Origin: a virus
Lineage: Duplodnaviria; Caudoviricetes
DNA: 37,686 nucleotides
Virus record (IMG/VR): IMGVR_UViG_3300020306_000007
Location: 1-37,686 of that record
Reading direction: 5' to 3' (one strand)
Position numbers and translations under genes: made by a program. The stretch's first letter is position 1; every line of letters starts with the position of its first letter. The notes beneath the pieces are model-generated. The model did no database searches and was not told the origin of the DNA. It was given only the letters and a program-made list of their open reading frames with translations. Positions 21,392-37,686 of the stretch are shown piece after piece.

Positions 21392-21393
21392 TC

Positions 21394-21528: not shown

Positions 21529-21534
21529 AAAATT

Positions 21535-22099: not shown

Positions 22100-22133
22100 A
22101 CTTATATGGAGTTATATATAACTACATTTGATG

Positions 22134-22185: not shown

Positions 22186-22219
22186 AACAAAATTGGATCC
22201 TAAGGATCCAGGAGAGAAA

Positions 22220-22528
22220 ATGTCACATTGGCAAACTTTACGAAGTGAAAACAGAAAAAGATCTTTTAGAAAAGATCTTTTACAAAAACTTATGATGATC
22301 CTATTAGGATCTCCTTATGTTAAGTCAAACAACTTAGCAACTGCTTGGATAAATTCAGCTTATGTAAATCAAGATTTAGATCTTATGCTTACATACGCTG
22401 AATGGTGGAATGAAACTTATAACCATGATCAAAAAATTTGGGCACATAGAGAAAAGATCTTTGACAAGATACTACTTGTTGAGTCTTTTATCTTAGGCAA
22501 AGATCATCCTTTCATGGAGGTTAAGTAA
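22220..22528 (+). CDS. Hypothetical protein
   Basis: Start moved to ATG 22220 (RBS aggag), downstream of the leader terminator. Confidence 0.65.
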   Translation: MSHWQTLRSENRKRSFRKDLLQKLMMILLGSPYVKSNNLATAWINSAYVNQDLDLMLTYAEWWNETYNHDQKIWAHREKIFDKILLVESFILGKDHPFMEVK

Positions 22529-22701
22529 TGGCTTTTGACATACAAAAAAGATCTTTAAAAAAATCTAAAAAAAACACCTGGAGCAGATCAATGAGATCTG
22601 CTCCTGGCACAAAAAAATTTGCACAGAAACTTGGTACACCTGGAGCCAGGAAAATTGCAAAACAATATCTTATCCAGGAAATGAGAGAGGTTATGCAATG
22701 A
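22528..22701 (+). CDS. 57 aa basic protein (not in ORF track)
   Basis: MAFDIQKRSLKKSKK...EMREVMQ; RBS ggagg; taatg and atga overlaps at its ends. Confidence 0.65.
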   Translation: MAFDIQKRSLKKSKKNTWSRSMRSAPGTKKFAQKLGTPGARKIAKQYLIQEMREVMQ

Positions 22702-22991
22702 GAACAATATTTAGTTTAGCTGAGAAAGGCAGAGCTAGTTATTTCGATATAAAGAAAAGGGAAGATCAATATATCTTTTTAATTATGCTTCCTAATGTTG
22801 GTGGGGTTAGACCTATTTGCAAAAATGAAAAAAATCTTAGATTGAAAACTATAATCAATACTAAGATGGATTGGTGTGATATGAGTCTTAAAGAATATCT
22901 CAACAATTCAGAGAATGAGCAATACTATTGCCAAACTTTGAAGGGTAAAACACTTTGGAAAAGAATTAAAAAAACTTTGGAGAAAATATGA
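22698..22991 (+). CDS. Hypothetical protein
   Basis: 97 aa; RBS gaggt; overlaps the integrase start. Confidence 0.65.
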   Translation: MRTIFSLAEKGRASYFDIKKREDQYIFLIMLPNVGGVRPICKNEKNLRLKTIINTKMDWCDMSLKEYLNNSENEQYYCQTLKGKTLWKRIKKTLEKI

Positions 22992-24049
22992 GAACTAGAA
23001 CTACTGATAAAAAATTTAATGGCTTGTGCTGGATCACTAGACACATCAAAGATGATCCTTCACAGCCAACATACACAACTTACTTTGCCAAAATTCCTAA
23101 TGGCAACAAATCTCCCAGGCTAGTTAAAGTTGGATCTGACAAAGATCAACTTAGCCTGGCTGTTTTAAGAGAGAGAGCTAAAGATGAGATCAGCAAAGTA
23201 AGTACCAGGGGAAACTCTGATCATACTCTTAACTCATTTTTTGATGAGATCTTTATCAAAGATAGGGAAAGAAAAAAAACTGAAACTCTCAGGCATTTCT
23301 TTTATATGTGGGATAACAATATTAGAAATACCCTGGGCATGAAAAGAATGGTAGATCTAGAAACTATAGACATTTACCAGGAGTTTATGAAGATCTCCGA
23401 AAGATCTGAGTCAGTTGCAAACAAATGCTTACAACACATCAAATCTTGTTATGCATTAGCTATGGATCTTGGCTTGGTTAAATTTAATCCAGCTAGTTCT
23501 GTTAAGAAAAATGCATCAGAAAACAGGATCAGATTTTTTAATGCTGATCAGACAGTTAGATTTAAAAAGGCATTGTTTTCATTAGGAGAGGATCACAAAT
23601 TTGCTACAGCTCTGATCTATGCTCTTTACTTAACAGGAGCAAGATTTGGAGAGCTTAGAGATGCTAAATGGTCAGATCTACATGGAAATAAAATCGTTAG
23701 ATCCAAACACAAAACTAAAAAAATTACAGGTCAGGATCGTATTATTTATTTATCTCCAGAGGCTATGGATCTGATCAACAGATTGCCCAGAGATAACGAA
23801 TACATTTTTAACTGTAAATATGTCAAAACTGCCTGGAATAAAATCAGAGAGATTGCAGATCTTAAAGAGTTTCACTTGCACGATTTAAGACACAACTTTT
23901 GTACCCAGGCTATCAACAATGGTATAGATCTAATCAGAGTTGGTAAATTGGTCGGTCATAAGTCTGTCGAAACAATGGAAAAATATGCCCATGTTTTAGA
24001 TCAGACTTCTGACAACGACATCAAACAGATTGGCAATCTTTTAAGCTAA
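22988..24049 (+). CDS. int: Tyrosine integrase
   Basis: Catalytic R (TGARFGE), K (KTK), HDLRH, VGH and Y (EKYAH); N-terminal arm-binding-like and core-binding regions. Confidence 0.92.
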   Translation: MRTRTTDKKFNGLCWITRHIKDDPSQPTYTTYFAKIPNGNKSPRLVKVGSDKDQLSLAVLRERAKDEISKVSTRGNSDHTLNSFFDEIFIKDRERKKTETLRHFFYMWDNNIRNTLGMKRMVDLETIDIYQEFMKISERSESVANKCLQHIKSCYALAMDLGLVKFNPASSVKKNASENRIRFFNADQTVRFKKALFSLGEDHKFATALIYALYLTGARFGELRDAKWSDLHGNKIVRSKHKTKKITGQDRIIYLSPEAMDLINRLPRDNEYIFNCKYVKTAWNKIREIADLKEFHLHDLRHNFCTQAINNGIDLIRVGKLVGHKSVETMEKYAHVLDQTSDNDIKQIGNLLS

Positions 24050-24345
24050 TCGTCAAACATAGGTAGATCCCTTCCTTGGGGATCTACCTCATAATATTTC
24101 TCTAAATGTAGCTCCAGGTAATGAATTGCCTTTTTAATATCTTGCACATGAAATGCTCTTCGCTTTGGATCTCTAGATCTGCAAACATATTTAATGACAT
24201 TACCTAATGCATAAGGAAGATCATTTTGCACAATAAAATCTATAGGCTCTATCATCAATCTTTTGTAGTGATCTCCTCCTACTTGGAATGAACTTGCCTT
24301 ATCAACAATTTCGTGAGCCTCTTCCATTTGTTTATCAATATCCAT
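24046..24345 (-). CDS. DUF3310 family protein (T7 gp1.7 / SaV-like)
   Basis: QVGGDHY..IEPIDFI..GNVIKYVCR..DIKKAIHYLE; RBS aggag. Confidence 0.85.
   Translation of the reverse strand: MDIDKQMEEAHEIVDKASSFQVGGDHYKRLMIEPIDFIVQNDLPYALGNVIKYVCRSRDPKRRAFHVQDIKKAIHYLELHLEKYYEVDPQGRDLPMFDD
24061..24089 (+). terminator. Hairpin just after the integrase stop
   Basis: 11-bp perfect stem AGGTAGATCCC / GGGATCTACCT; no clear U tract. Confidence 0.4.
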
Positions 24346-24400
24346 TTAATTTCTCCTAGATCTAATAAGATCTGATTTTGTTTGTAATTACAATTTTTAA

Positions 24401-24413
24401 ATAGTAAGACTAT
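24401..24413. promoter_or_regulatory. Palindromic operator-like site in divergent intergenic region
   Basis: ATAGT-AAG-ACTAT, a perfect match to the recurring consensus. Confidence 0.6.
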
Positions 24414-24508
24414 CCAAAAATTTTTTAGATCTAATTGTACTCCATATATTTACTTTCAATGCAGTTATCCCTCATAATGTGTCTTTATTTTTCAAGATGG
24501 AATTATTA

Positions 24509-24715
24509 ATGGAAGATCTCAAATGTGTAGATACTAAAGAGGCATCTAAAATTCTTGGTGTTAGCCCTAACACTTTAAATTGCTGGAGATCTCAAAGTAC
24601 ACCGAAAAATCCCAAAGGCCCTAAATGGGTAAATATAGAAAGTGCTGTCAGATATAGGATCAAAGACCTGGAAGAGTATCTGAGCAACAACACCATGGGA
24701 GAAACTAATAAATAA
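24509..24715 (+). CDS. Excisionase / AlpA-like winged HTH protein
   Basis: DTKEASKILGVSPNTLNCWR..GPKWV..VRYR..DLEEYL; start uncertain (24479-24509). Confidence 0.8.
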   Translation: MEDLKCVDTKEASKILGVSPNTLNCWRSQSTPKNPKGPKWVNIESAVRYRIKDLEEYLSNNTMGETNK

Positions 24716-24729
24716 GTGGAGAAAAAATA

Positions 24730-25494
24730 TTGCCTTCTAAACATAGTATTTTGGGGCCATCTGCTCATTCCAGGTGGAGTGTCTGTCCAGCCTCGCCAAA
24801 AAAATGTGCTGAATATCCTGGGGAAACATCCAGGGCCGCTGTCGAGGGAACTATAGTGCACAACATTTCTGAGATGATCCTTAAAGGAAGATTTAAAGAT
24901 ACAGATCCAAAAAAATATTGGGTAGGTCAGCAGATAGAATTAGAAGGAGAAATTATTACAGTTTCTCCAAACAATTATGATTGTGCTCTTTTTTATGTTG
25001 AGTATGTAAAGAAAAGAACTGAGGAGCTCCAGGGCAGATTACTAATTGAGGAGCAAGTTGAATGTACTGAAATACACGAGGCAGTTTGGGGTACTTCTGA
25101 TGCAATCATAATTGGCAAAGACAGAATTGCTGTTATTGATTACAAAAATGGCAGATGGAATGTTGAGGCAGAGAACAATTCACAATTAAAGATTTATGGT
25201 CTAGGAGCATTAGCTAAATATTCAGATGATCCTGAAACGATTATTGAACTTACAATCGTTCAGCCAAATACTCCAGGCAATAAAAAAAAGATCAAGACAG
25301 TAGAAACCACAGCAGAGCATTTAGTTGATTGGGGTTATGATGTCTTAAAACCACAAGCTGAGGCATGTTTTGAAGATGATCCAAAGTTTGTGGCTGGAGA
25401 GCATTGTCGGTTTTGTAATTACAAGCCACATTGTAAAACTAATAAAATCTATGAAAAACAAAGAGGTGGATATGACAAAGAAATTATTGGATGA
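24730..25494 (+). CDS. Cas4-like PD-(D/E)xK exonuclease (DUF2800)
   Basis: HS.LGPS...RW..CP, GT..H, WGTSD, IDYKNG, QLKIY, C-terminal HCRFC..C; TTG start. Confidence 0.88.
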   Translation: MPSKHSILGPSAHSRWSVCPASPKKCAEYPGETSRAAVEGTIVHNISEMILKGRFKDTDPKKYWVGQQIELEGEIITVSPNNYDCALFYVEYVKKRTEELQGRLLIEEQVECTEIHEAVWGTSDAIIIGKDRIAVIDYKNGRWNVEAENNSQLKIYGLGALAKYSDDPETIIELTIVQPNTPGNKKKIKTVETTAEHLVDWGYDVLKPQAEACFEDDPKFVAGEHCRFCNYKPHCKTNKIYEKQRGGYDKEIIG

Positions 25495-25813
25495 AAATCC
25501 AAAATTGAGCCGAAGTTGGGAGGAGCCTTGCTTTACAGCAGTTCAAGAAGATGGAAGCAAAATAGAATGGTATGAAAGAGATCTGGATCCTGAAACAAAG
25601 GGAGTGATGGAGAAACTTCTTATCAATCTACAACAGAGAAATGAGCTTGAGGGTAAATATCAACAAGCAATAATCATTACTCAATCAATGCAACAGATCA
25701 TGGATCTCCATGAGCTGTTTTACGAGAAGTTGCTAAACCTCAATCCAGGTAAAAAAATCGTGGAAGGTGGTACTGTGACTTTAGAAACTAACATTAAGAC
25801 TAAAGGAGATTAA
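25472..25813 (+). CDS. Hypothetical protein
   Basis: ATG 25472 after gaggtgg. Confidence 0.65.
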   Translation: MTKKLLDENPKLSRSWEEPCFTAVQEDGSKIEWYERDLDPETKGVMEKLLINLQQRNELEGKYQQAIIITQSMQQIMDLHELFYEKLLNLNPGKKIVEGGTVTLETNIKTKGD

Positions 25814-25816
25814 TTT

Positions 25817-26578
25817 ATGTCGTTAGAAAATATAAGAAAAAAAAGTGTGGTCAAAGCTCCAAGAATTTTAGCTTATGGCCCTGCTGGTATAGGAAAGTCG
25901 AGTTTTGGGGCTACCCTGGAAAACCCAATTTTCCTTCTTACTGAGGATGGCCTTGGTACATTGCAAGTGGATCATTTTCCTCTGGCAAAAACTTGGCTAG
26001 AAATAAAAGAGAGCCTTACAACTCTGCTGAAAGAAAAACATACTTTTAAAAGTTTAGTTTTAGATAGTGCAGATTGGCTAGAGCCATTGATCTGGGATCA
26101 TGTTTGTAAAGAAAATGATTGGGCAGACATTGGATCGGCCGCTTATGGAAAAGGCTATACTGCGGCCTTAGAAATTTGGAGAGAGTACATAGCTCTAACA
26201 AATGCTCTGAGAGATCAAAAAGGAATGACAATCTTAAATTTAGCTCATGTGCTAATCAGAAGATTTGAGGATCCTGTCACAGAGGCTTATGATCGCATGG
26301 AGATCAAACTCCACAGAAAGGCCGCTGACTTGCTCATAGAAAATTCTGATGCAGTCTTTTACATGGCTTATAAAAAAGGAACTGTTCAAACTGCTGGTAA
26401 AGGTGGAACACAAACTAAAGTTCTTAATGGAGATAGAACTATATTTTGTGAAGAACAAGCGGCCTACTTGGCAAAGAATAGGTATCAACTAAAACCTGAA
26501 ATGCCTTTTTCCTGGAAGAGCATTTCTGAGATGATCAGAGAAAATGCAAAAGCTAACACCTCTGAAAAAGAGTCTTAA
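25817..26578 (+). CDS. Sak4-like ssDNA annealing ATPase (AAA_24)
   Basis: YGPAGIGKS Walker A, VLDSADWLE, YGKGY, LAH and AKNRY motifs. Confidence 0.88.
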   Translation: MSLENIRKKSVVKAPRILAYGPAGIGKSSFGATLENPIFLLTEDGLGTLQVDHFPLAKTWLEIKESLTTLLKEKHTFKSLVLDSADWLEPLIWDHVCKENDWADIGSAAYGKGYTAALEIWREYIALTNALRDQKGMTILNLAHVLIRRFEDPVTEAYDRMEIKLHRKAADLLIENSDAVFYMAYKKGTVQTAGKGGTQTKVLNGDRTIFCEEQAAYLAKNRYQLKPEMPFSWKSISEMIRENAKANTSEKES

Positions 26579-26781
26579 TGGTTGAAGATCTAATTAAGTT
26601 GTTAAAGGAGATCTCTGATCAACTTGATAGCTTTAGACAGGAGAATGGTGGGCTAGACATGGAAAATGAACAGCACACAGATTTTCCTACAGGAACTATG
26701 AAAAGTTTAGATCTCATACAACATGAGATTGATACTTCAATAGATTGGCTTGAAGATCCTAATACTTATGATCCAGGTTAG
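26578..26781 (+). CDS. Hypothetical acidic protein
   Basis: 67 aa; taatg overlap with upstream gene. Confidence 0.6.
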   Translation: MVEDLIKLLKEISDQLDSFRQENGGLDMENEQHTDFPTGTMKSLDLIQHEIDTSIDWLEDPNTYDPG

Positions 26782-26832
26782 CCCTGGATCTAGGATCTTT
26801 GTTTTTAATAATAAAAAAGTAAGGAGGTCAAA

Positions 26833-27435
26833 ATGGGAATACCTTTTGATTTTGATGAAAATGAAGTGCCTGAGGCTAGTGTATCTGGATCCTCAGGTAA
26901 TTTACCAAATGGGATCTACAACTTAGTTTTTAACAGAGTTGCAGATGCCAATGATAATGCTGATGAAAATGGGCAAGTATCAGGTAAAAATGATTGGAAA
27001 GCATTAAAGATCTATTTCACTTTGAAATGTACTAGCGACATGGAAAAGCCAATAGTCTTAGATGCTACTTTTCAATCTGACTATGATCCAACAATCACAG
27101 GAAAGGATGGCAATCCTATGAGAGATTGGATGATAGAAAATGGCAAAGCATCTTACAAAGCAATGATGTTTTATTCAGGAGCTACAGATCTCAGAGATCC
27201 TAAAACTAGCTTGGTGGGTAGAGAATTATCATGCTTAGTTGAAAAAGATGATGCTGGGTATTTAAAATTAGTACCTGGTAGCAAAGGGCAAAATTGGGGA
27301 GAGCTCCAAGATCTAGATAAACCAGAAATAAATGTGACAGCAGAAAAAGTTGAAGTCACAAATTCTGAAAGTGGTTTAGATAAAGTTGTTCCTAAAACAG
27401 ATCCTCAAGGATTTGACGAGGAAATACCCTTTTAA
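26833..27435 (+). CDS. Single-stranded DNA-binding protein (DUF669-like)
   Basis: LPNGIY start of the fold; acidic DEEIPF C-terminus; follows Sak4; RBS taaggagg. Confidence 0.75.
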   Translation: MGIPFDFDENEVPEASVSGSSGNLPNGIYNLVFNRVADANDNADENGQVSGKNDWKALKIYFTLKCTSDMEKPIVLDATFQSDYDPTITGKDGNPMRDWMIENGKASYKAMMFYSGATDLRDPKTSLVGRELSCLVEKDDAGYLKLVPGSKGQNWGELQDLDKPEINVTAEKVEVTNSESGLDKVVPKTDPQGFDEEIPF

Positions 27436-27794
27436 TGTATAGACATAAATCTCCTTCCTTATGTGGATATTGTTTGAAACCAGGAAGGGGATTTTTTGTC
27501 ACTATAGATAGTAAAGTTTGGGCATCATGCTCAATAGAACACATGGATAAAATTAAAGAGAGAATAGCAAACAAGGAGAGCCTGGGGATCAATGCAGTAT
27601 CAAATCCACAAGGAGTTGATTATGCTTTGAAACAAGTTAAAGAGAATTACAAGTCTTATGCAAAGAAAAATGGATCCTGGATTTTGCATCAATGGGATCC
27701 TATGGATAAAAAAATGTTTTTTCAGATCTTCTTATCTCATTATCTCTCTTATGAAAGCAAATTAGCTGACAGAGGTATGGATGGACATAAATAA
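27435..27794 (+). CDS. Hypothetical zinc-finger protein
   Basis: CGYC...CSIEH. Confidence 0.65.
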   Translation: MYRHKSPSLCGYCLKPGRGFFVTIDSKVWASCSIEHMDKIKERIANKESLGINAVSNPQGVDYALKQVKENYKSYAKKNGSWILHQWDPMDKKMFFQIFLSHYLSYESKLADRGMDGHK

Positions 27795-29628
27795 TGTATG
27801 GGATGATTTAGGATCTAATGATCATTTAGCTTATAAAGGATCTTCAAGATCTATTGCAGATCTAATCCAGGAAATGAACAACAATGGGCTGGATATTGTC
27901 AGCCTAGATACTTCTGGAGAGGTTAATAGAGTAAGGGTAAAGGCAACGCCTAACACCAGACCTGATCGTTCTGGAGAGGCCTCAGGATGGTATTTTTTTT
28001 ATGACAATGGCAATAATAATTTTTTCTGCAATTATGGAAATTGGAGAACAGGCGAAACCTATAAATTTTCCTCTGTAGATACTCAATATATGTCTGTCCA
28101 GGAACAGGCAAAAATTAAACAAGAATTAGATAAAAGGTATAAAGAGCAACAGGAAAGGAGGGAAGAGAACTATAGAGAAGTTGCAAAGGAAGTACAGGTT
28201 AGGTTTCAAAAAACTAAAGATCTTAAAGAACATGAATATCTCTCATTAAAAGGTGTTAAAAATTATGGGTTTAAAGAGTTAAATGGAAATTTAACAATTC
28301 CTCTGCATGATACTACTGTTCCAGATTTTCCTGTATGTTCTATGCAAACAATCTATAAAGATGGAACTAAAAGATTTGTTTCTGGCTCCAGAGTCAAAGG
28401 ATCTTTTTTTCCTTTAGGCTTTTCCATAAATGAGATCTCAAATTTAGACAAGATCATAATTACTGAGGGATTGGCCACAAGTTGTTCTGTTTATGAGGCA
28501 ACTAATCTTCCTGTTATTTGTGTTTTTTCTGCAAACTTTGGATTGGAATGTTTAACCAATCTTCGTAAATATACTCAGGCTAAATTCATCTTGGCTTTTG
28601 ATAATGATACTCACTATGTTGGGCAAGAACAGGCAAAGAAGATCCAGGCATCAATAAACAATGTTGAAGTTAAGATCCCAAATAAGCCTGGATATGATTT
28701 CAACGACATACACAAAGAAGATGGTTTAGCAGAAGTAAAAAGCCAACTTATGATCTCTGCTTTTGACATTAAAGCAATTTCATTAAGACAGTTTGATACA
28801 AATCCTCCAAAGAGATCCTGGCTGGTAAAAAATTTAATTGAGTCAGCTAAGACAGGCCTGATAGCTAGTGCTGGTGGCATAGGCAAGAGTTTTTTAAATT
28901 TATCTTTAGCTTTTAATTGTGCTAGGGGAGAAGGATCCTTTCTAGGTAATCCAATAGAGAAATTTGGAAATTGTGTTTTGCTAGTTGCTGAGGATGATGT
29001 GGCTGAGATCCATAGAAGGATCCAAATGTTAGATCCTAACAACACCAGGAAAAATTCTTTGTATGATGTTTATATTATTTCTGTACCAGAGTTAGGAAAA
29101 CCTTTGACTTTGATCAAAGAAGATCTTAATCAAGGCTTACACATCACATCTGAGGCTTACGATATTATTGATGGGCTATCAGCCATACCAGATCTAGTTA
29201 TGGTGTCTATTGATCCATTACAGGCTTTTATAGGGGCACAAACCAATAGTAATGAAGTAGGGCAGTTATATTCTATTTATGCCCAGATGATTGCGACAAG
29301 ATTTGAAACATCAGTTATTGGGATCCATCATTTATCTAAATCTGGTTTAAAAGAAGATCTGCAATTTTTAGAAATGAGGGCCAGCATCAGAGGAGCTAGT
29401 TCATTTGTGGACTCTTCAAGATGGGTTTTAGGATTAAGCACAGCAGATCCAGAGAGTGCAAAGCAGATCTGCATAGAAAATAATGAAGAGTGGGATCCTC
29501 TTAAAGTTATTAGATGTGGCATTGTCAAAGCAAACTCTGAGGCAGATATGAATGTCAAAACATTGATCAGAAAAAATGGGATCCTGGAGCTTGTAAGGGA
29601 GCCAGGCAACATTATTTGGGAAGAATGA
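27781..29628 (+). CDS. Primase-helicase (TOPRIM plus RepA/AAA_25 helicase)
   Basis: SGWY..GNWR, ITEGLAT, AFDND, DFND, then SAGGIGKS, AEDD, IDP, HHLSK, IRGASS. Confidence 0.9.
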   Translation: MDINNVWDDLGSNDHLAYKGSSRSIADLIQEMNNNGLDIVSLDTSGEVNRVRVKATPNTRPDRSGEASGWYFFYDNGNNNFFCNYGNWRTGETYKFSSVDTQYMSVQEQAKIKQELDKRYKEQQERREENYREVAKEVQVRFQKTKDLKEHEYLSLKGVKNYGFKELNGNLTIPLHDTTVPDFPVCSMQTIYKDGTKRFVSGSRVKGSFFPLGFSINEISNLDKIIITEGLATSCSVYEATNLPVICVFSANFGLECLTNLRKYTQAKFILAFDNDTHYVGQEQAKKIQASINNVEVKIPNKPGYDFNDIHKEDGLAEVKSQLMISAFDIKAISLRQFDTNPPKRSWLVKNLIESAKTGLIASAGGIGKSFLNLSLAFNCARGEGSFLGNPIEKFGNCVLLVAEDDVAEIHRRIQMLDPNNTRKNSLYDVYIISVPELGKPLTLIKEDLNQGLHITSEAYDIIDGLSAIPDLVMVSIDPLQAFIGAQTNSNEVGQLYSIYAQMIATRFETSVIGIHHLSKSGLKEDLQFLEMRASIRGASSFVDSSRWVLGLSTADPESAKQICIENNEEWDPLKVIRCGIVKANSEADMNVKTLIRKNGILELVREPGNIIWEE

Positions 29629-29687
29629 TTGGGTACCCCTATGGTCAGAAACAGGCAAGGTATTGGGAACACATGTGGTCACAATGA

Positions 29688-29736
29688 CATATCTATTACA
29701 TATAGATATGGGGAATGCCCCTTGGGGCATTTCCCC
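29688..29736. other. Tandem inverted repeats after primase-helicase (candidate origin)
   Basis: CATATCTAT-5-ATAGATATG abutting GGGGAATGCCCC-TT-GGGGCATTTCCCC. Confidence 0.5.
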
Positions 29737-30218
29737 TATCAAAGAGAATTGTTTTGAAAAAGTTTTATAACAAACATCCTGACTTCTCGAACTATTGGTG
29801 GATCACATCAGCTTTACCTGGAGAGGAGAGTGCTGAGATTAATTTAGATTTAGCTTTAGCTAACAAAGATTTTATAAAGCTCAAGGCAAATGCCTGGAGG
29901 TGGTTTAGAGATCAGATACAGAGAAAGGATCTAAAACTATCTTCCAGGGAGCAAATAGTTTTATGGGCATTGATCGAGAGGATCAGGGGTAAGAGTTTTT
30001 CAGTATGGTGTTCCTACCTTTACCTCAGCAGAATGCTGAATAAAGATAGGAAAACAATAGCGAAGGCAATAAATAACCTGGCTGAGCAAAATGTAATTTG
30101 GCTTGTCCAGGAGGGAAGGGAGAGGGTAGCAATGAGATCCTTACCAGCTCAGAAGAGAGTAAAGAAACATATCATCCTGGTAGGGTTAAATGCCTATTTA
30201 GGGGATTTAGAGGGGTAA
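29715..30218 (+). CDS. Winged-HTH DNA-binding protein
   Basis: LSSREQIVLWAL..SYLYLSRMLNKDRKTIAKAINNLAEQNVI; the true start may be TTG at about 29754. Confidence 0.65.
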   Translation: MPLGAFPLSKRIVLKKFYNKHPDFSNYWWITSALPGEESAEINLDLALANKDFIKLKANAWRWFRDQIQRKDLKLSSREQIVLWALIERIRGKSFSVWCSYLYLSRMLNKDRKTIAKAINNLAEQNVIWLVQEGRERVAMRSLPAQKRVKKHIILVGLNAYLGDLEG

Positions 30219-30289
30219 AGTGAGAAAAATGAGCTCCATAGAGGCTCTCTAAGGGCTAAAAAGGGTTAGGGTAAGGGTTTAGTACCTCC

Positions 30290-30318
30290 AAAAGAAAAGG
30301 GCTCCCTGAGGAGCCCTT
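30290..30318 (-). terminator. Terminator between convergent operons
   Basis: AAGGGCTCC-CTGA-GGAGCCCTT stem; upstream A tract gives a U tail on the minus strand. Confidence 0.75.
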
Positions 30319-30340
30319 CTGATCTTAACCCAAGATCTAA

Positions 30341-30613
30341 TTAGAACTTCCAGGGATCTTTGCTTGGATCTACAAAACTTTCTTTCTCTAGCAAGTCTTT
30401 GATCTCAGCTTTTCTTTCCTGGATGAAAAATTGGATCTGAGAGTTCAGATCCAAGGCATTGTTTAAAGTTTCAAGGATCTTACTTAGATCAGCAGAACTG
30501 CTTTGATAGTCTTTTAAAACATCTTCTAAGTCAAGAGTGACACCTTTTGCTTTAGAGATCTCATCTTCAAATTCTGCTATGAAGATCTCTCTATCAGTTA
30601 TTGCTCTTTCCAT
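30341..30613 (-). CDS. Hypothetical coiled-coil protein
   Basis: 90 aa; RBS ggaagg; has its own upstream regulatory region. Confidence 0.65.
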   Translation of the reverse strand: MERAITDREIFIAEFEDEISKAKGVTLDLEDVLKDYQSSSADLSKILETLNNALDLNSQIQFFIQERKAEIKDLLEKESFVDPSKDPWKF

Positions 30614-30664
30614 CTTACCTTCCTGGGCATTGCCCTATTAGTTAATCGTGGAGCTATTATAAAC

Positions 30665-30698
30665 ATAGTATTACTATCATTAGCAATAGTCACACTAG
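30665..30698. promoter_or_regulatory. Two operator-like palindromes
   Basis: ATAGT-ATT-ACTAT (30665-30677) and ATAGT-CAC-ACTAG (30686-30698), next to a minus-strand TATAAT. Confidence 0.6.
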
Positions 30699-30772
30699 AT
30701 ATATTTCCATGTTCCAAACAAAGATCATAATAATTGCAAACATTAACATTATGATCCAATCCTTAGGCTCTC

Positions 30773-31633
30773 TCATCTGTTGTATCTCAACTTAGCTATC
30801 TTTGGCATAGCATGATGTCTTGAGATGAAATGTTTAAGAATAGATGTTGTTGGATTTGGGAAAGTTTCTCTCTCTAACTGAGCTAAGGTTTTGCCTTCTA
30901 TCAATCCAGATCTAATCCAATCTAATTTCTTTTGGATCTTATCTTGATCTAATTTAACTGCCTCAACTTGAGTGGGATTGACTGCACTATATAAACCAAT
31001 TTGTTTTAGATCTCTCAAGTAATTTGTGATCATAGGTTTAGAAACTCCCATAATGTTTTTGCAATCATCTATGGAAACTCCATTCATTCTAAGATTAAGA
31101 ACTCTCATGTGATTTTCACTAACACTAAAATCATGTTTGTAATTATCTAAAGGATCTAATTTTTTTTGTTTCCAAAGCCTAGTCAAAGTTTCTTGCAAAA
31201 GTTTTCTATAAATCCTTCCTGGATGTTTCTGAAAAAAATTATCTCGCCATTCAAAATATTCTGCTGTGCCATTGCCATATAGTTTGCTCAAAGCAAAAAC
31301 TACATCTGGAATGACAGACTCTAATCTGTTGATGGTTAGATGTTTAGTTCTGTCCAGGGTAGATCTAATTTCAAAACCAAGAGATCTGGCTTTGTTTAAT
31401 ATCTGCCTGATCCTCTCTCTGCTTACTCCATAAATATCTCCCAGGGATTGATAAGTATGAGTGTGATCCATATTCCAGAGAGTGATCACTTCCATATTTC
31501 TTTGGCTTTTTAAAAACCTATATTTTTTGTGTGTTGCTTTTAATTCAGCAACAATATTTAAAAGATGCTTTTTTAAAGCTCTTTCAGTTTTGAGGTTTTC
31601 TAACCTCTCTTTGTTGGTACAAATTTTATCCAT
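30773..31633 (-). CDS. Multi-HTH protein with sigma70 region 4-like domain
   Basis: TYQSLGDIYGVSRERIRQIL; second HTH GVSIDDCKNIMGVSKPMITNYL; start taken at MDKIC after gaggag. Confidence 0.75.
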   Translation of the reverse strand: MDKICTNKERLENLKTERALKKHLLNIVAELKATHKKYRFLKSQRNMEVITLWNMDHTHTYQSLGDIYGVSRERIRQILNKARSLGFEIRSTLDRTKHLTINRLESVIPDVVFALSKLYGNGTAEYFEWRDNFFQKHPGRIYRKLLQETLTRLWKQKKLDPLDNYKHDFSVSENHMRVLNLRMNGVSIDDCKNIMGVSKPMITNYLRDLKQIGLYSAVNPTQVEAVKLDQDKIQKKLDWIRSGLIEGKTLAQLERETFPNPTTSILKHFISRHHAMPKIAKLRYNR

Positions 31634-31784
31634 CTTTTTGCTCCTCTGATTTATTATCAGTTTTGTTTTTCTTGCCAAAGATCCTTTCAAAGTTTTCTTC
31701 AAATTTTTCTTTGGATATATCCATTGGTCTAGGATCAGATCCCTTTCCTAATTCATTCAGAATTTGTTGTAGGTTGTTCTCCAT
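31626..31784 (-). CDS. 52 aa phage protein
   Basis: GKGSDPRP..FEENFERIF motif; start taken at MENN. Confidence 0.6.
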   Translation of the reverse strand: MENNLQQILNELGKGSDPRPMDISKEKFEENFERIFGKKNKTDNKSEEQKDG

Positions 31785-31983
31785 AGTTCTCTCGGATGTG
31801 GTTAGTAAATTCTGCCATGAGATAAGATCTATTGGCTGAGATATATTCCTCATACTCAATAGGATCTTCCCCATAAGCCCTTCTCTCTGACAAACATTCT
31901 GCATGTTTCTCTTTACAGAATGCCTGGAAGAGAGTTTCTTGATCAAAGTCTATGACTTTGGATCCTTTATTTTTATCATTCAT
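31753..31983 (-). CDS. Hypothetical protein
   Basis: 76 aa; RBS gaggt. Confidence 0.65.
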   Translation of the reverse strand: MNDKNKGSKVIDFDQETLFQAFCKEKHAECLSERRAYGEDPIEYEEYISANRSYLMAEFTNHIRENYGEQPTTNSE

Positions 31984-31992
31984 AATTACCTC

Positions 31993-32070
31993 TCAAAATA
32001 AATATAAAATTAAATAGGTATAAACAATTATGGCTGTGTACCAGAGGATCAAATACCAATATCCTTTCAT
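31993..32070 (-). CDS. 25 aa hydrophobic peptide (not in ORF track)
   Basis: MKGYWYLILWYTAIIVYTYLILYLF; atga overlap with upstream gene. Confidence 0.45.
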   Translation of the reverse strand: MKGYWYLILWYTAIIVYTYLILYLF

Positions 32071-32219
32071 CTGCCTTGCCCTCTGTATGATTTGTAAGAT
32101 CTTCTTTTATGTTTATTCATGGTAGCTGTTGAAACATTCCTCCTGGATCCCTGGGAAGTCTTTTTTCCACGAGCTCCTGTCTTTTGCTCATGCTTAACAT
32201 TTTTGAAGATTTTAGCCAT
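32067..32219 (-). CDS. 50 aa basic mini-protein (not in ORF track)
   Basis: MAKIFK..KKTSQG..MNKHKRRSYKSYRGQGR, a pattern recalled from marine phages. Confidence 0.7.
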   Translation of the reverse strand: MAKIFKNVKHEQKTGARGKKTSQGSRRNVSTATMNKHKRRSYKSYRGQGR

Positions 32220-32234
32220 TGGTGGAGATCCTTC

Positions 32235-32519
32235 TTAATCCAGGCTGGGGGGGTTAGCCTGGCTTGTTTTGGTTTTAGGAGAGAATGAAGGATCTCCTGT
32301 TTCTTGTATTCTAGTTTGTAATTGATAATTTGTATAACTCAACAATGCAACTAGCAATCTCGTAGCCTCTGGTTTTAAGGATCCTGTTTCCCCTGACTCC
32401 CAAAAGTTTATTAATTTTTTTATGACTTCAATCATTACTTTGTCATTGACTGCATAATCGTCAGCATAAGCATCAAAGAAATCTTGTGCCATTATATTTA
32501 GATCATTTGTATTAACCAT
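32235..32519 (-). CDS. Hypothetical protein
   Basis: 94 aa; RBS aggag; overlaps the glycosyltransferase stop. Confidence 0.65.
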   Translation of the reverse strand: MVNTNDLNIMAQDFFDAYADDYAVNDKVMIEVIKKLINFWESGETGSLKPEATRLLVALLSYTNYQLQTRIQETGDPSFSPKTKTSQANPPSLD

Positions 32520-33393
32520 AATTTTTGCTCCTGGTCTTTACTAACTTCATACCATATTCATTAATCCCATCTGGGATCTCTAAGCCTGGTATTTTTTTTA
32601 GTGGGTTATCTTTAAAAGAACTGTAATCAACTTCGTGATGCCATCTGCCATACCTGAAAACCAATGATGTTATTTCAGGATGCATATCAACTAACATCTG
32701 AGATTTATTTTTAGTTCCTTCTCCATCATAAAACTCTGCTGAGTTTCCTCCTCTCATTGTTGATGTTCTAAGTTTGTTTTGTAAAAAAGCCTGGAACAAT
32801 AATGTTGCCCAGCCATCTTTTAACATTCTTAATGAGAGATCTGTATCTTCGTTGTATCTGCCTCTCCATCTGTAAGGCACATCATTTCTAATTAAATTAC
32901 ACGAATAAATCCTGGTGTTTGTTCTGTAAGGAGGTTTTTTTCTCCTGGATCCTCCAGCAAAAAATCTGTATTCAAATCCAGACATGGCTATATTTTCATA
33001 TCTATCAACAAAATCTTCTGATGCTCTAAATATGGCTCCAGATCTACAATTAATTCTTTCGTTGCGATTAAATCTACAGAAACCAGCGATATTATCATCC
33101 ATTACCCAATGCTTATCGTGTCCTTGAGCAATAGAGTGATCCCAAGCATAGTTCCTGGCTCCTCCAGGCCCTTTCCTGGGATCATCATCTTTCCAAAAGG
33201 TATCATACTCATCTAGATACTTTTTAGGCAGTACCAGGAGCTTATCTTCGCCTAAGGATCTTGCATAAAGATCAAACTCTTGCTCTTCTACTATTACCTG
33301 GTAAGGAACATTCATTAGATCTAAATGCTTTGCAGTTATGGGATTTTCATATCTGCCTTTTGATGGGATATAAATTGGAGATCTAGGTTTCAT
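32512..33393 (-). CDS. TET-associated (TAGT / GREB1-like) GT-A fold glycosyltransferase
   Basis: IYIPSKGR, ARNYAWD, HWVMDDNI, RIYSCNLI, WRGRYNEDTDLSL, GGNS motifs. Confidence 0.8.
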   Translation of the reverse strand: MKPRSPIYIPSKGRYENPITAKHLDLMNVPYQVIVEEQEFDLYARSLGEDKLLVLPKKYLDEYDTFWKDDDPRKGPGGARNYAWDHSIAQGHDKHWVMDDNIAGFCRFNRNERINCRSGAIFRASEDFVDRYENIAMSGFEYRFFAGGSRRKKPPYRTNTRIYSCNLIRNDVPYRWRGRYNEDTDLSLRMLKDGWATLLFQAFLQNKLRTSTMRGGNSAEFYDGEGTKNKSQMLVDMHPEITSLVFRYGRWHHEVDYSSFKDNPLKKIPGLEIPDGINEYGMKLVKTRSKNYG

Positions 33394-33649
33394 CTATATA
33401 CTCCATTTTGTCTTTATCAATGACAGGAAAAAATATTCCCTTGGTTTCCATTGTGATATTTCTGCCTATCAGATCTGAAAACTTTTTCATATCATCCTCA
33501 GTTTCAAAACTTATGACAATTTGTTTGATAGCCTCTTTATTCTCACAAATATATTCAGGCATTTGTTTCCATTCAGATCTCCAGCTCTCATCATCCTTGT
33601 TAAGAACTTTAGGATCTGGCAGTTCAAATAATTCTTTTTGGATCTCCAA
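33383..33649 (-). CDS. Small partner protein of the glycosyltransferase
   Basis: EWKQMPEY..IVISFETEDD..F..LI..IT..TK.IFFP; TTG start; overlaps the GT start. Confidence 0.7.
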   Translation of the reverse strand: MEIQKELFELPDPKVLNKDDESWRSEWKQMPEYICENKEAIKQIVISFETEDDMKKFSDLIGRNITMETKGIFFPVIDKDKMEYIDET

Positions 33650-33871
33650 CTAATACTCCTCAACATTAGCCTGGTACTTATCTGGATTTTCAGATCCATT
33701 TAAGATCTCAGGATCTTGTTCTCCTCTTTGCAAAGACAAATGATCATTTCTTAACATTGCTCCCATACTTTTAATTTTTGCTGTCCATTGCTTTGGGATC
33801 CATAAAGTGACTTTGACTAATCCTTGCTCCTTTTGTTTTTGTTCGTATCTATTCTGTGGTTTATATTTCAT
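33650..33871 (-). CDS. Small basic protein, possible ribbon-helix-helix DNA binder
   Basis: RYEQKQKEQGLVKVTLWIP; start taken at ATG 33871. Confidence 0.55.
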   Translation of the reverse strand: MKYKPQNRYEQKQKEQGLVKVTLWIPKQWTAKIKSMGAMLRNDHLSLQRGEQDPEILNGSENPDKYQANVEEY

Positions 33872-34151
33872 TTGGCATTTCTCCGAAAATTTCTGGGTGG
33901 TTGATAACATGATCTGCAACTTCACAAATAAGACGATTTCTTATTTCCTCATCAAAGTTGTAATGTTCTATTCGTTGTTTGAATTGTGATGGAAAGTTCC
34001 AGATAGGAATACTATCTTCCCATTTATAAAAATAAAATCTCAATGACATCTTTTGCCCAAACAACTCAGACAATGTTTTGGAGTGACAGACATGCAATGA
34101 TAAGCCAGATCTTGTTTCTCTAGATCCAGAGAGCTCATAAACATTATTCAT
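33861..34151 (-). CDS. Hypothetical protein
   Basis: 96 aa ORF overlapping neighbours. Confidence 0.6.
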   Translation of the reverse strand: MNNVYELSGSRETRSGLSLHVCHSKTLSELFGQKMSLRFYFYKWEDSIPIWNFPSQFKQRIEHYNFDEEIRNRLICEVADHVINHPEIFGEMPNEI

Positions 34152-34350
34152 AATACTCTCTCATCCTGAGCTGATCTGCTCTGAAAGTTTTTGTTTCAAC
34201 TTCTCGCTTTTCCTCATCATAAAGTTTGTAGCGATCTCCAGGCAATACTCTCCAAATAGTACATTTGAAAGTAGTACCTTTCCTCCAAACACGATCATTG
34301 ATCCTATATGTAGATTGTGGCTCTACAAAGCCATCCTTATAAATACTCAA
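34144..34350 (-). CDS. Hypothetical protein
   Basis: 68 aa; TTG start; beta-rich. Confidence 0.55.
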   Translation of the reverse strand: MSIYKDGFVEPQSTYRINDRVWRKGTTFKCTIWRVLPGDRYKLYDEEKREVETKTFRADQLRMREYYE

Positions 34351-34352
34351 AC

Positions 34353-34598
34353 TTAAAATGGATTTTTGTATTCAATTTCCCTTGGCTCCCAGCTACTAAC
34401 CTTTTTCTCAACTCTTTGGAAATCAGTCACTAGCAAAGTTTCGCATCCAGGAACTTCCTCTTCACATTGGATCTTTACATCTTGATAGCCTTTGGATATT
34501 AAATTATCTGCCTGGCTAACAGCTTGATCTTTATTTTCGTAAGCAACAACTAAAGAGCTCTCAATAATTGGCTCGAAAAAACTAACTTTATAAAACAT
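34353..34598 (-). CDS. Hypothetical protein, first gene of the leftward operon
   Basis: 81 aa; strong RBS taaggagg. Confidence 0.7.
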   Translation of the reverse strand: MFYKVSFFEPIIESSLVVAYENKDQAVSQADNLISKGYQDVKIQCEEEVPGCETLLVTDFQRVEKKVSSWEPREIEYKNPF

Positions 34599-34621
34599 AA
34601 AACCTCCTTATGTCTTGATCA

Positions 34622-34664
34622 ATAGTCACATTATCGTTCATAGGAATACTATTAGTCAAACTAT
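34622..34664 (-). promoter_or_regulatory. Leftward promoter overlaid by three operator-like palindromes
   Basis: Minus strand TTGACT-18 bp-GATAAT; ATAGT-N3-ACTAT variants at 34622, 34640 and 34652. Confidence 0.6.
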
Positions 34665-34735
34665 GTAAAAGATTAAAACTCTTCGCTGTTCTTATAAATC
34701 AACAGCATTTATAATTATCGGAACAAAATTGAACT

Positions 34736-35260
34736 ATGAATGAACAAAAGAAAAAGCCTGGTAGAAAAATGAAAACACTTGGAGAAGAGCATGTTGAACA
34801 GATCATTCAGCTTGGAGCTCAAGGTTTAGGCATCATGCAGATCTGTCAGGCTTTAGATATATCATGGGATGTTTTCAACAGAGAAAGGGGTAAAAAGGAA
34901 ATATCGGAAGCCTTAAAAAAAGGCCAAGCACTTGGGATCAAGGCAGTCACAAATTCTTTGTTCAATCAAGCAACTAATGGGAAAAATACTGTGGCCTCCA
35001 TCTTTTATTTGAAAAATCGAGATCCAGATAATTGGGCAGATAAACAAGAAACAGAGGTCAATATCAATTTAAGAGAGATCTTAGACAATGCATCAACAAG
35101 AATTAGTGAACAGCAAGTGAACACAATAGATATAACACCTGAAAAGCCTTTAGATATAGGGAATGACAAAGAGATCCTCATCCCTAGTAAGAATGATAGT
35201 GAAATAATCCAGGATCCAGAGGAGAGATCCTCCAGATCTAGAGATCTAAAAGATGATTGA
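34736..35260 (+). CDS. terS: Terminase small subunit
   Basis: KPGRK plus HTH, EALKKG..SLF..A..G..ASIFYLKNR..W.DKQE; upstream of TerL. Confidence 0.8.
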   Translation: MNEQKKKPGRKMKTLGEEHVEQIIQLGAQGLGIMQICQALDISWDVFNRERGKKEISEALKKGQALGIKAVTNSLFNQATNGKNTVASIFYLKNRDPDNWADKQETEVNINLREILDNASTRISEQQVNTIDITPEKPLDIGNDKEILIPSKNDSEIIQDPEERSSRSRDLKDD

Positions 35261-35403
35261 GCAAAGTCTATTCTCCATCTTATCCAATTTGCTTTTTCAT
35301 TTAGAGGGAGCCCAGATTTTCTCCGATTTTGGGCCCCCTCGATTTTCCTGGAGCCCCCATAGTTATATTTAACAGTAGGATTAAAATTTTTTAATTTTTT
35401 TAT

Positions 35404-36939
35404 ATGAAATATTCAGCACAAGACGAAAAAAGATTAATGTCAGAAATTTGGAGCATGGAGATTAAGAACTCTCCTCTCAAATTTGTAAAATATATTTTTG
35501 AGTGGGGCAAAGAAGGTACCCCCCTGGAAAAATTTACAGGCCCAAGGAAGTGGCAAGAAAAAATTTTGAAAGAAATGGAGATCCATATTGCCAGGAACAA
35601 TGGAGAAATGGATCCATCAATGTTTAGAAAAGCAGTTGCCTCTGGTCGTGGCATAGGAAAGTCAGCTTTTGTGTCCTGGATCGTATTATGGATGTTATCT
35701 ACCAGGCTTGGATCTACTGTTATTGTCACAGCAAACACAGAACAACAGCTCAGATCCAGGACATGGGCAGAATTAGGAAAATGGATGACTCTTGCTCTTA
35801 ACAATCATTGGTTTGTTAGATCTGCGACAACAATAAAACCAGCTCCCTGGTTTGAGGAACTCTTAAAAAGGGATCTCAAAATAGACACAGGTTATTACTA
35901 TGCTCAGGCACAGCTTTGGTCAGCAGAAACTCCTGATGCTTTCGCTGGTGTGCATTCTCATTATGGCTGTATGCTTTTAATGGATGAGGCATCTGGTATT
36001 CCTCAAAATATTTATTCTGTAAGTGAAGGATTTTTTACTGAGCCAATCGAAGATCGTTATTGGTTTTGCTTTTCTAACCCCAGGAGAAATACAGGGCCTT
36101 TTTATGAGTGCTTTCATAGTGCCAGGAGCTTTTGGTCAGGAGATCAAATAGACTCCAGGAAAGTAGAAGGTACTGATAAAGAGCTTTTTAATTCTATGAT
36201 TGAGCAATATGGAGAAGATAGCACAGTTGCCAGGGTAGAAGTTAAAGGAGAATTTCCTACTGCTGACTCAGATACAGTCGTTCCCCTGGATCTAGTCAAA
36301 TCGGCAGTAGAAAGAGATGTTGCCCTCCAAACATCAGCTCCAATTATTTGGGGTTTAGATGTTGCCAGGCAAGGAGCTGACAAATCTGCTCTTTGTATTC
36401 GCCAGGGAAACCATGTGCTTGAAATACAAACTATAAATTCTCCAGATCTGATGCAACTTTGTGGAAGGATCAAAGCCAAATATGACGAAGAGCAGTCTAT
36501 GAATAGACCACATGAAATTTTAGTGGATGCAATCGGATTAGGAGCTGGGGTAGTAGATAGGCTCCTGGAACAAAATTTACCTGTTAGGGGTATTAATGTT
36601 GCAGAGGTACCCAGCACAAAAGGAACATATTTAAATCTTAGGGCAGAGCTCTGGTTTAAGATAAAAGAATGGTTGGGGGGAAGAGATGTTAGGCTCCCTG
36701 ATGATGATGGCCTGGTAAGTGAGATCTCTTCCCCTATCTATAAATTTAATTCAACAGGCAAAATAAAAGTTGAGTCAAAAGAAGATATGAAAAAGAGAGG
36801 AATTAAATCTCCAGACAAAGCAGATGCCCTGGCATTAACAATGGCTAGTGAAGGAGCATCTTTTGGAGGATCTAAAGAAAGTTTTATGGGGTATAATTTC
36901 AGGAAACCTCTCAAATCAAAAATTTTACGAGTCGGATAA
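35404..36939 (+). CDS. terL: Terminase large subunit
   Basis: ASGRGIGKS Walker A, MDEASG Walker B, SNPRR, GLDVARQGAD nuclease motif, SPDKADAL. Confidence 0.95.
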   Translation: MKYSAQDEKRLMSEIWSMEIKNSPLKFVKYIFEWGKEGTPLEKFTGPRKWQEKILKEMEIHIARNNGEMDPSMFRKAVASGRGIGKSAFVSWIVLWMLSTRLGSTVIVTANTEQQLRSRTWAELGKWMTLALNNHWFVRSATTIKPAPWFEELLKRDLKIDTGYYYAQAQLWSAETPDAFAGVHSHYGCMLLMDEASGIPQNIYSVSEGFFTEPIEDRYWFCFSNPRRNTGPFYECFHSARSFWSGDQIDSRKVEGTDKELFNSMIEQYGEDSTVARVEVKGEFPTADSDTVVPLDLVKSAVERDVALQTSAPIIWGLDVARQGADKSALCIRQGNHVLEIQTINSPDLMQLCGRIKAKYDEEQSMNRPHEILVDAIGLGAGVVDRLLEQNLPVRGINVAEVPSTKGTYLNLRAELWFKIKEWLGGRDVRLPDDDGLVSEISSPIYKFNSTGKIKVESKEDMKKRGIKSPDKADALALTMASEGASFGGSKESFMGYNFRKPLKSKILRVG

Positions 36940-37686
36940 ATGAAAAATTTATTAATGCCACAGTCAAAATATAGAATAGAGTCTTATGAGCCCTCTCCTG
37001 GGCAAAAAAGAACTGAAAATATGTCTAATTTTTTACAGGCTATTGGAGGTTTTACAGATCGCAACAACATACCTTTTTTAAGTTCTTTTGCAGACGAAAG
37101 AAATGCATATCGAATGGCTAACAAACTTAATAATGCTTATGAAACAGTTGGAGATTTTATTCCAGGGCTTTCTTATGAGTTAGCAAAAGAGAGAGAGGAT
37201 GATTTAGGACAAAACCTGGCTATGTTGGATCTAATTCCTGGAGGAGCTATACCAAAACAAGTAGTTAAGAAAACTATTAAAGATGCAGACGAAGTTAAAG
37301 ACATGATGTTTTTGCATAATACAAGCTCAGAGGCTTTAGAAAATTATCAAAACTTAGGAGGATTGCCATCTCCCAGCATGGCAGTCACACAAAAGGATCT
37401 TCCTTTTGAGGGTTTTGGAGATATTACTTTAGTTGGTAAGCCAGGCAATTTTGATCCTAAAGTTTCTGCATCAAATAAAATTTATAGCTCTGATGCTTAT
37501 ACTCCAAGAGCTCCAGCTCCTATACAAACTACTAAAAGAAATGCTTATGATTATTTATTAGAAAATTATGAGCCATTAGCGAAAAAATTTGATGAAGGTA
37601 TAGGATTTATATTAGATGATGTTTATCAGCAGTCATTTAAAAAACATGCCTCTAGTCGTAGGCAAAATCAGGTAAAAGAAATTTTC
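36940..37686 (+). CDS. N-terminal part of the junction-spanning gene; putative ADP-ribosyltransferase-fold protein (not in ORF track)
   Basis: ATG directly after the TerL stop and open to the window end; FLHNTSSEAL..LGGLPSPSMAV..FGDITLVG..DP..IYSSDAYTPR; in frame with base 1 via the repeat. Confidence 0.65.
   Translation, partial: MKNLLMPQSKYRIESYEPSPGQKRTENMSNFLQAIGGFTDRNNIPFLSSFADERNAYRMANKLNNAYETVGDFIPGLSYELAKEREDDLGQNLAMLDLIPGGAIPKQVVKKTIKDADEVKDMMFLHNTSSEALENYQNLGGLPSPSMAVTQKDLPFEGFGDITLVGKPGNFDPKVSASNKIYSSDAYTPRAPAPIQTTKRNAYDYLLENYEPLAKKFDEGIGFILDDVYQQSFKKHASSRRQNQVKEIF
37570..37686 (+). repeat. Terminal direct repeat, right copy (imperfect)
   Basis: Matches 1-117 with 9 substitutions and no indels. 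Confidence 0.95.

Follow-up and report, generated by a model that had tools for sequence, protein, structure and literature searches.

Introduction

The TAGT family of glycosyltransferases (GTs), reportedly so named by Iyer et al. in 2013, is represented in a marine phage by a gene that, with that of a small partner protein, forms the two-gene cassette treated in this report. The phage genome (Duplodnaviria; Caudoviricetes), IMG/VR record IMGVR_UViG_3300020306_000007, was analysed over its full length of 37,686 nucleotides (37.7 kb), and this whole stretch is called the window below. Among its closest described relatives are the beta-glucosyl-HMC-alpha-glucosyltransferase of phages T2 and T6 (HMC, hydroxymethylcytosine) and the solitary phage TAGTs, which belong to the same Pfam family (PF20691; phrog_842) and have the same GT-A fold as the window enzyme (PMC13216743). 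The T2/T6 enzyme adds a second glucose to alpha-glucosyl-hydroxymethylcytosine and needs a hydroxymethylase and an alpha-GT, both absent from the window phage (PMC13216743), whose clade is further set apart from T2/T6 by its DDN and EDT motifs and by a partner with a WxxMPE motif. The clusters of C5-methyltransferase, TET dioxygenase (5mYOX) and GT-A enzyme, as also the base-J glucosyltransferase, share R..DD..ED motifs of the GT-A fold with the window enzyme, whose relatives have ParB and terminase neighbours (PMC8256090; bioRxiv 10.1101/2023.12.21.572611), but neither a methylase nor a dioxygenase accompanies the GT in the window phage or in 50 records carrying its relatives.

ParB has been proposed to direct modification during packaging (PMC8256090), and phage T-dioxygenases are activated by a ParB-type helper that has no DNA-binding domain but a C-terminal domain on which the DNA-modifying enzyme next to it depends (PMC13229309). 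In T4, the alpha-GT binds the clamp gp45 and DNA glycosylation is co-replicational (PMC13216743), while Mor and MuC of phage Mu bind the beta-clamp through a short N-terminal motif, Qx[D/E][L/M]F, placed as in the window partner (PMC12867686). Brig3/BapA, described in a preprint, concerns a glycosylase and a hydrolase rather than a GT.

The TAGT family and its solitary occurrence are already known: a solitary TAGT is found in 288 of 753 GT-bearing phage genomes (PMC13216743), and about 65% of GT contigs lack a 5mYOX or ThyS neighbour and were left untested by their authors (bioRxiv 10.1101/2023.12.21.572611). Published surveys thus hold hundreds to thousands of phage TAGT/GT-A genes without an acceptor-making partner, their substrate left open. 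What is new here is that, judged by sequence comparison, the pair is swapped for a methyltransferase-like gene in near-identical strains, and for an ABC-ATPase/GNAT gene in a second lineage. The locus thereby offers a natural experiment in isogenic-like strains, which have either the sugar-transferase pair or a methylase; it identifies the absent cofactor that heterologous expression would call for and, in the partner motif QKELF, provides a single-residue handle on the proposed clamp tethering. Our literature searches returned no account of the WxxMPE partner, its clamp motif or an allele exchange with methylases, although the clade may be listed in supplementary Table S4 or Fig. S13 of Pyle et al. 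or in Fig. S2 of PMC13216743; PMC13326640 mentions neither TAGT nor Aeh1, Kuja or POP12.

A TAGT-family enzyme and its small acidic partner

The GT, a 293-residue protein with an isoelectric point (pI) of 9.1, is encoded at 32512..33393 (-), and the 88-residue partner at 33383..33649 (-), exactly where an earlier note made from the sequence alone had placed them. That note had recognised TAGT/GREB1-type motifs, and profile searches agree: the protein matches Pfam TAGT (PF20691) with an E-value of 7.5e-45 and 153.8 bits against a cut-off of 27.5, over positions 2-205 of the 205 in the profile, and phrog_842 at 2.1e-49. Its AlphaFold model (predicted local distance difference test, pLDDT, 89) finds GT-A folds in the PDB at E 1e-5, superposes on the model of a viral TAGT with a template-modelling (TM) score of 0.82, and matches a T-even-type TAGT member at E 1.3e-9 (TM 0.57, 13% identity), while a sequence search of solved structures gave no match. 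Across 50 sequences R80, D99-D100 and E182-D183 are invariant, and the third positions of the two acidic motifs are N101 and T184 in all 50, to be compared with R...DDD...EDY/F in characterised phage GT-A enzymes and the base-J glucosyltransferase (bioRxiv 10.1101/2023.12.21.572611). The donor/metal motif D99-D100-N101 lies at 33091..33099 (-), and the predicted catalytic-base motif E182-D183-T184, at 32842..32850 (-), is preceded by an invariant RWRGRYN, which together with a C-terminal R-x-HH marks the clade; pI exceeds 8 in 49 of the 50 relatives.

The partner is acidic (pI 4.5), begins with TTG 6 nt downstream of a Shine-Dalgarno-like GAGGAG (33656..33661 (-)), and overlaps the GT by 11 nt. 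Its core motif, WKQMPEY at 33551..33571 (-), contains W27, M30 and P31, invariant in 37 partners. It belongs to no family in Pfam, PHROG, NCBIfam or PADLOC; its monomer model (predicted TM score, pTM, 0.43) retrieved nothing with Z of at least 2 in a fold search and only unnamed viral clusters as atlas neighbours, and comparison with a ParB-methylase and with the ParB of phage Cooper gave no match to either.

The two genes are coupled, jointly conserved and under purifying selection. The survey covered 85 loci, namely five cultured phages and the best 80 of an estimated 2,600 or so stored viral stretches matching the GT (54-65% identical); cultured-phage records matching it number 25, of which 23 do so over most of its length, and include Aeh1, 65, POP12, PTm1 and Kuja. 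The partner domain accompanies 83 of the 85 GTs: 48 loci encode it as a gene of its own, 19 as the C-terminal part of a longer protein, mostly of ParB type, and 16 as an N-terminal fusion to the GT, while the two loci without it are cut at the locus edge. All ten variants seen inside the two genes in four other runs are synonymous, eight of eight in the GT and two of two in the partner, the short partial contigs of run X10 not being counted as evidence. The coupling to a small protein with an EW..MPEY signature, which the earlier note had noticed in one genome, thus holds across the clade, of which the partner is an obligate companion. The C-terminal placement in 19 loci resembles the arrangement of the ParB-activated dioxygenases, from which the cassette differs in that the client is a glycosyltransferase, that WxxMPE is unmatched in Cooper ParB, and that a Pfam scan finds on the window partner no ParB N-terminal domain of the kind present on partners of relatives. 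In Aeh1 (L081:5897-6097) and POP12 (L083:5858-6037), a second, free copy of the partner-like domain directly follows the fused GT.

The pair travels without an acceptor-making gene

The genome appears to be complete, as the earlier note supposed: the completeness rating of the record is 100%, and a sister contig bridges the end of the window to its start. A Pfam scan of 56 window open reading frames (ORFs) yielded no match to TET/JBP, DNA methylase (C5-cytosine methyltransferases included), thymidylate synthase or sugar-nucleotide families, nor to a dCMP hydroxymethylase (thymidylate-synthase family) or a second, priming GT, and a six-frame Tet_JBP search was empty for the window and three complete carriers, while the positive control, Mycobacterium phage Cooper, matched at 4e-8. 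(The Cooper gene, gp2 at L426:785-1753, is annotated as queuine tRNA-ribosyltransferase, and its match lies under the curated cut-off.) The absences listed in the earlier note therefore stand. Its description of the TAGT as an orphan is apt insofar as no acceptor-making gene is present, but this is the normal state of the clade rather than a peculiarity of one genome: a search of 50 carrier records (45 from the 80 viral loci and the five cultured phages; ten at least 90% complete) found no Tet_JBP, again with a positive control, and 92 selected ORFs of four complete carriers showed no TET, thymidylate synthase or DNA methylase in a Pfam scan. One of these four encodes a UDP-glucose (uridine diphosphate glucose) dehydrogenase and an epimerase.

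No second family travels with the pair, whose usual neighbours are terminases, ERF and exonucleases. Its commonest layout in bacterial genomes, in prophages, is ParB-partner, TAGT, terS, terL, which parallels the order ParB, TET-like gene, terS, terL of phage Cooper. In some cassettes, partner and TAGT are separated by an additional GT or by an FkbM methylase, again without TET, an arrangement that would suit a priming role of the TAGT; such inserts and variants lie at L377:7042-7995, L385:6899-7984, L379:7351-7995 and L392:358-1005. In the enterobacterial prophages L343, L344, L057, L059 and L070, genes for GT9-like, methyltransferase and MptE-like proteins precede ParB-partner, TAGT and terminase.

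Exchange with DNA-modifying-type enzymes

The strongest evidence for what the cassette acts upon comes from the genes that replace it. At 32520..33625 (-) lies an exchangeable slot that holds partner and GT in the window and in the related loci L225 and L226, and a methyltransferase-like ORF of the N4/N6 type, 338-339 residues long, in L227, L228 and L184; in blastn comparisons, DNA similarity between the two alleles ends at 33626 and resumes at 32519. The strains are otherwise close, the terminases of L227 and L228 being 99.4% and that of L184 95% identical to that of the window strain. The alternative allele matches Pfam N6_N4_Mtase at 5e-9 and PADLOC MTase_II at 2.5e-10 and contains both motif I and SPPY; its top cultured match is a protein annotated as N4-cytosine methylase. 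In a second, unrelated lineage the pair of L003 is exactly swapped for an ABC-ATPase/GNAT gene in L274, with flanks 95% and 92% identical; for ABC-ATPase/GNAT fusions, acylation of a DNA base has been predicted (PMC7824862). Further, more distant relatives have C5 and N6/N4 methylases at the equivalent position, and the genes directly upstream of the terminase (small and large subunits, 34736..36939 (+) in the window) are, in more distant family members, a ParB-methylase, a phrog_757 methylase, or ArdA or ArdC, which are anti-restriction genes. By this guilt by substitution, DNA is probably the substrate, in line with the earlier note.

The methyltransferase-like ORF, at L227:4434-5450, L228:1476-2492 and L184:1787-2806, has 1790 homologs in a protein search and belongs to an uncharacterised family. 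A 346-residue protein without Pfam or NCBIfam match (L247:6970-8010) occupies a slot that holds the pair in L285 and a C5 methylase in L253, and is a candidate further DNA-modifying enzyme. A second variable slot follows the replication initiator, where one strain of each allele type, but not the window, has a PAPS-reductase-like gene (L227:1241-2119; L226:8-694).

A clamp-type motif at the allele junction

Both alleles start with M-E-I-Q-x-x-L-F (QKELF in the partner, QEQLF in the methylase-like protein), and their shared DNA stops right after these eight codons. In the partner, QKELF (residues 4-8; 33626..33640 (-)) thus forms the last shared codons before the junction, and it fits the bacterial beta-sliding-clamp motif, of the type QL[S/D]LF (PMC9690074), and the consensus Qx[D/E][L/M]F tested for Mor and MuC (PMC12867686). 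Counted as a strict pattern within 30 residues upstream of the partner core, the motif occurs in 15 of 39 free partners, 9 of 28 fused to a GT and none of 40 ParB-type or long ones, against 28 of 2343 other N-termini (about 1%); it is present in 10 of 24 dereplicated clusters of free partners and, in an independent protein set, in 10 of 25 GT-fused, 2 of 61 ParB-like and 5 of 34 other forms. Tethering of the GT to the clamp through the partner is, on these grounds, the reading that we somewhat favour. It would differ from the T4 and Mu cases in that the motif sits on a separate adaptor, through which a GT-A enzyme would be linked to the clamp of the host.

Proposed function and alternatives

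The explanation that we prefer, at somewhat short of an even chance, is a counter-defence in which the exchangeable cassette glycosylates the DNA of the phage itself just after its replication. The small protein would hold the enzyme on the sliding clamp of the host, and the acceptor of the sugar would probably be an unmodified base. To judge from the fusions, the WxxMPE domain would bind the GT and serve as adaptor or activator, the acidic partner contacting the basic enzyme, and the N-terminal QKELF would, as the motif suggests, dock into the host beta-clamp and bring the GT to nascent DNA; in relatives, a ParB N-terminal domain would take the place of the clamp motif. The enzyme, like others of its family, would use a host nucleoside diphosphate sugar and a divalent metal. 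The least certain step is that, for want of a TET enzyme or hydroxymethylase, the GT would have to make the first attachment itself, and the first-choice acceptor would be an exocyclic amine of adenine or cytosine, preferred because unmodified bases are the actual or predicted substrates of the enzymes that replace the pair, N4/N6 methylase and ABC-ATPase/GNAT. Such a mark would probably be sparse or sequence-limited. Such direct attack on an unmodified base is regarded as doubtful, and its extension to a widespread phage GT-A clade, loaded by beta-clamp- or ParB-using adaptors and yielding N-glycosylated adenine or cytosine, as rather unlikely. Should DNA indeed be glycosylated without a hydroxylated precursor, the base chemistry would be novel, phages would have a previously undescribed route of counter-defence, and the enzyme might serve for labelling DNA. 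For the clade as a whole, the reading would imply a DNA base not described before, and hypermodification in one step, without a precursor and in exchange with methylases.

Several observations weigh against this reading, and some of them favour one or other of its alternatives. The slot is a hot spot for accessory genes in general, frequently empty or filled with genes of unknown function. The strict clamp motif is lacking in 43 of 67 non-ParB partners, just 13 of 120 proteins related to the alternative methylase have the motif, and since the ParB forms represent few events on a FastTree tree (six changes, at least two), the mutual exclusion of motif and ParB is statistically weak. The window genome avoids many restriction-type words, an avoidance so heavy that restriction must still bite, and protection by the cassette cannot then be general. 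In the literature searched there is no modified nucleoside for any clade member, no DNA chemistry of a cultured carrier, and no precedent for a sugar on an unmodified base, and Pyle et al. thought DNA modification a less likely role for neighbourless GTs (bioRxiv 10.1101/2023.12.21.572611).

Among the alternatives, conventional chemistry on an acceptor supplied from outside the cassette survives best, although it seems clearly unlikely. Here the GT would act on a hydroxylated base, 5-hydroxymethylcytosine, 5-hydroxymethyluracil or 5-hydroxycytosine, whose source would be the host, another phage in the same cell or a phage enzyme that has escaped recognition, and the characterised TAGTs do all use a hydroxyl acceptor (PMC13216743; bioRxiv 10.1101/2023.12.21.572611). 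Dioxygenases can moreover escape annotation, as 5-17% of contigs found by phage 5mYOX profiles lack a Pfam TET annotation (PMC13229309). Large cultured carriers encode thymidylate-synthase-family genes, although no thymidylate-synthase match was found in Vibrio phage 1.076.O, a cultured carrier of the fused form, as are Aeh1 and 65; and in the lineage of G055 and L008 an unannotated ORF resembling 2-oxoglutarate (2OG)-Fe(II) oxygenases lies directly upstream of the fused partner-TAGT (L008:8883-9608; atlas neighbours WelO5/2OG-FeII_Oxy_3). Among all ORFs surveyed, however, this oxygenase-like ORF is confined to that one carrier lineage and one non-carrier (L322:5483-6085), no second family accompanies the pair elsewhere, and the window ORFs with an HxD..H pattern are limited to the adaptor, a nuclease, a helix-turn-helix (HTH) protein, a 119-residue Zn-finger-like ORF and the GT itself. 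The hosts of carriers, besides, span many phyla and are unlikely to have one rare base in common.

A low probability also attaches to an acceptor other than DNA, be it a host protein (a part of the replisome or a factor in restriction or defence), a protein of the virion, or a surface glycan modified for superinfection exclusion, with the enzyme clamp-tethered or free. The top PDB fold neighbours of the GT are collagen and LARGE1 glycosyltransferases, which act on proteins and glycans, and TarP is the top PDB match of phage GT-As in Pyle et al. (bioRxiv 10.1101/2023.12.21.572611); the window phage has an integrase, some carriers have glycan-type neighbours (GT9, GT1, DXD GT, FkbM methylase, UDP-glucose dehydrogenase), and P0020 joins the partner domain to a DXD-type GT. 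The structural similarity is low, however (TM about 0.4, 9-13% identity), and the exchange with DNA methylases and GNAT in two lineages, the ParB fusions, the position in terminase operons and the basic enzyme all point to DNA.

Decidedly improbable is a third possibility, that DNA is the substrate but not its bases, a sugar-phosphate hydroxyl being capped instead (on 3' ends left by nicks or by terminase cutting, or the 2'-OH of embedded ribonucleotides) and the ends shielded from host nucleases. It would retain O-glycosyl chemistry without TET, fits the proposed clamp tethering, the terminase neighbourhood and the continued avoidance of restriction sites, and recalls Kuja, where the cassette adjoins a DNA end protector; but the exchange partners act, or are expected to act, on bases, the literature yielded no precedent, and replication would probably suffer if nicks or primers at the fork were blocked.

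Word biases as an independent lineage trait

A methyl group offers no hydroxyl for glycosylation. The proposal of the earlier note that GATC and CCWGG are enriched as target sites of the cassette, perhaps after host Dam/Dcm methylation, is very improbable and largely refuted as the cause of the enrichment, for even though both words are strongly and synonymously enriched, within the cassette too, their density is equal in strains with the methylase allele and in TAGT-free relatives, and none of the 80 other carriers combines the pair with an excess of both. The enrichment itself is genuine. The window has 424 GATC sites (3.4x the zero-order expectation) and 192 CCWGG sites (8x), ranking first among 4-mers and 5-mers respectively by Markov z-score (19.7 and 11.6), and its coding DNA holds 392 GATC against 208+-8 and 184 CCWGG against 51+-4 in synonymous-codon shuffles; the 1130-bp cassette contributes 14 and 10 sites. 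Yet in the homologous 3.3-kb flank the window counts 40 and 23 sites, and L227 and L228, which lack the pair, 39 and 23. Among the 80 carrier loci, GATC exceeds 1.5x in 18 and CCWGG exceeds 2x in none, CCWGG is missing from 40, and either word is wholly missing in some.

Capsid relatives tell the same story. TAGT was found in none of the 50 searched (of 80 fetched; six of them at least 90% complete), but CCWGG is observed 60 times against 15 expected in G002 and 229 against 43 in G007 (87% complete), and GATC 226 against 102 in G013 and 260 against 107 in G015, so that several relatives without the cassette are enriched as well, while G011 has neither word at all. The word excess is thus a lineage trait of its own, separate from the cassette, extending over 1..37686 (no strand) together with a near-absence of ACGT, CCGG, GCGC, GAWTC, GCWGC, GGWCC and GTWAC. 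GCSGC is in 4.3x excess genome-wide, and the relatives enrich or purge differing words: CCWGG and GGCC are up in G007, GATC, CCGG and GGCC in G013 and G015, and all four are gone from G011.

Two further ideas found little support. That CCWGG purging is specific to carriers is unsupported by matched controls with at least six expected sites: zero-CCWGG loci make up 4 of 8 carriers against 11 of 70 non-carriers in the ERF-linked set and 0 of 4 against 6 of 8 in the terminase-linked one, non-carrier status resting on the fetched flank alone, and four TAGT-free capsid relatives are also without CCWGG. Vsr-type repair would be a doubtful source of the CCWGG sites: the near-cognates CTAGG (33/52) and CCAAG (64/79) are no more than mildly low, while GCAGG (2/45) and CCAGT (3/48) are nearly absent.

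Genome context and flanking genes

The window phage was contained in 19 DNA runs, from marine, seawater or vent metagenomes. It encodes an SU10-type portal, a capsid protein (closest cultured match, 50%), an adaptor, an integrase, a primase/helicase and a terminase, whereas no polymerase match was found in it. The cassette is flanked by genes common to both alleles, upstream at 33650..33925 (-), abutting the partner start, and downstream at 32235..32519 (-), with an 8-nt overlap with the GT. Between terminase and portal, a PBECR5/phrog_22978-like gene spans the record ends (36940-37686 and 1-1236); it is missing in L226-L229 and shorter in L184, and as the first and last 115 nt or so of the window are alike but not identical, it may contain a repeat or be incompletely assembled. 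A Coq4-like gene at 13792-14592 lies amid the tail genes and is present too in the TAGT-free relatives G011 and G021. Finally, a 309-residue protein with two HTH regions resembling sigma-70 region 4 is encoded at 30773-31702; an allele 31-33% identical stands in its place in L227 and L228, and it is missing in L184.

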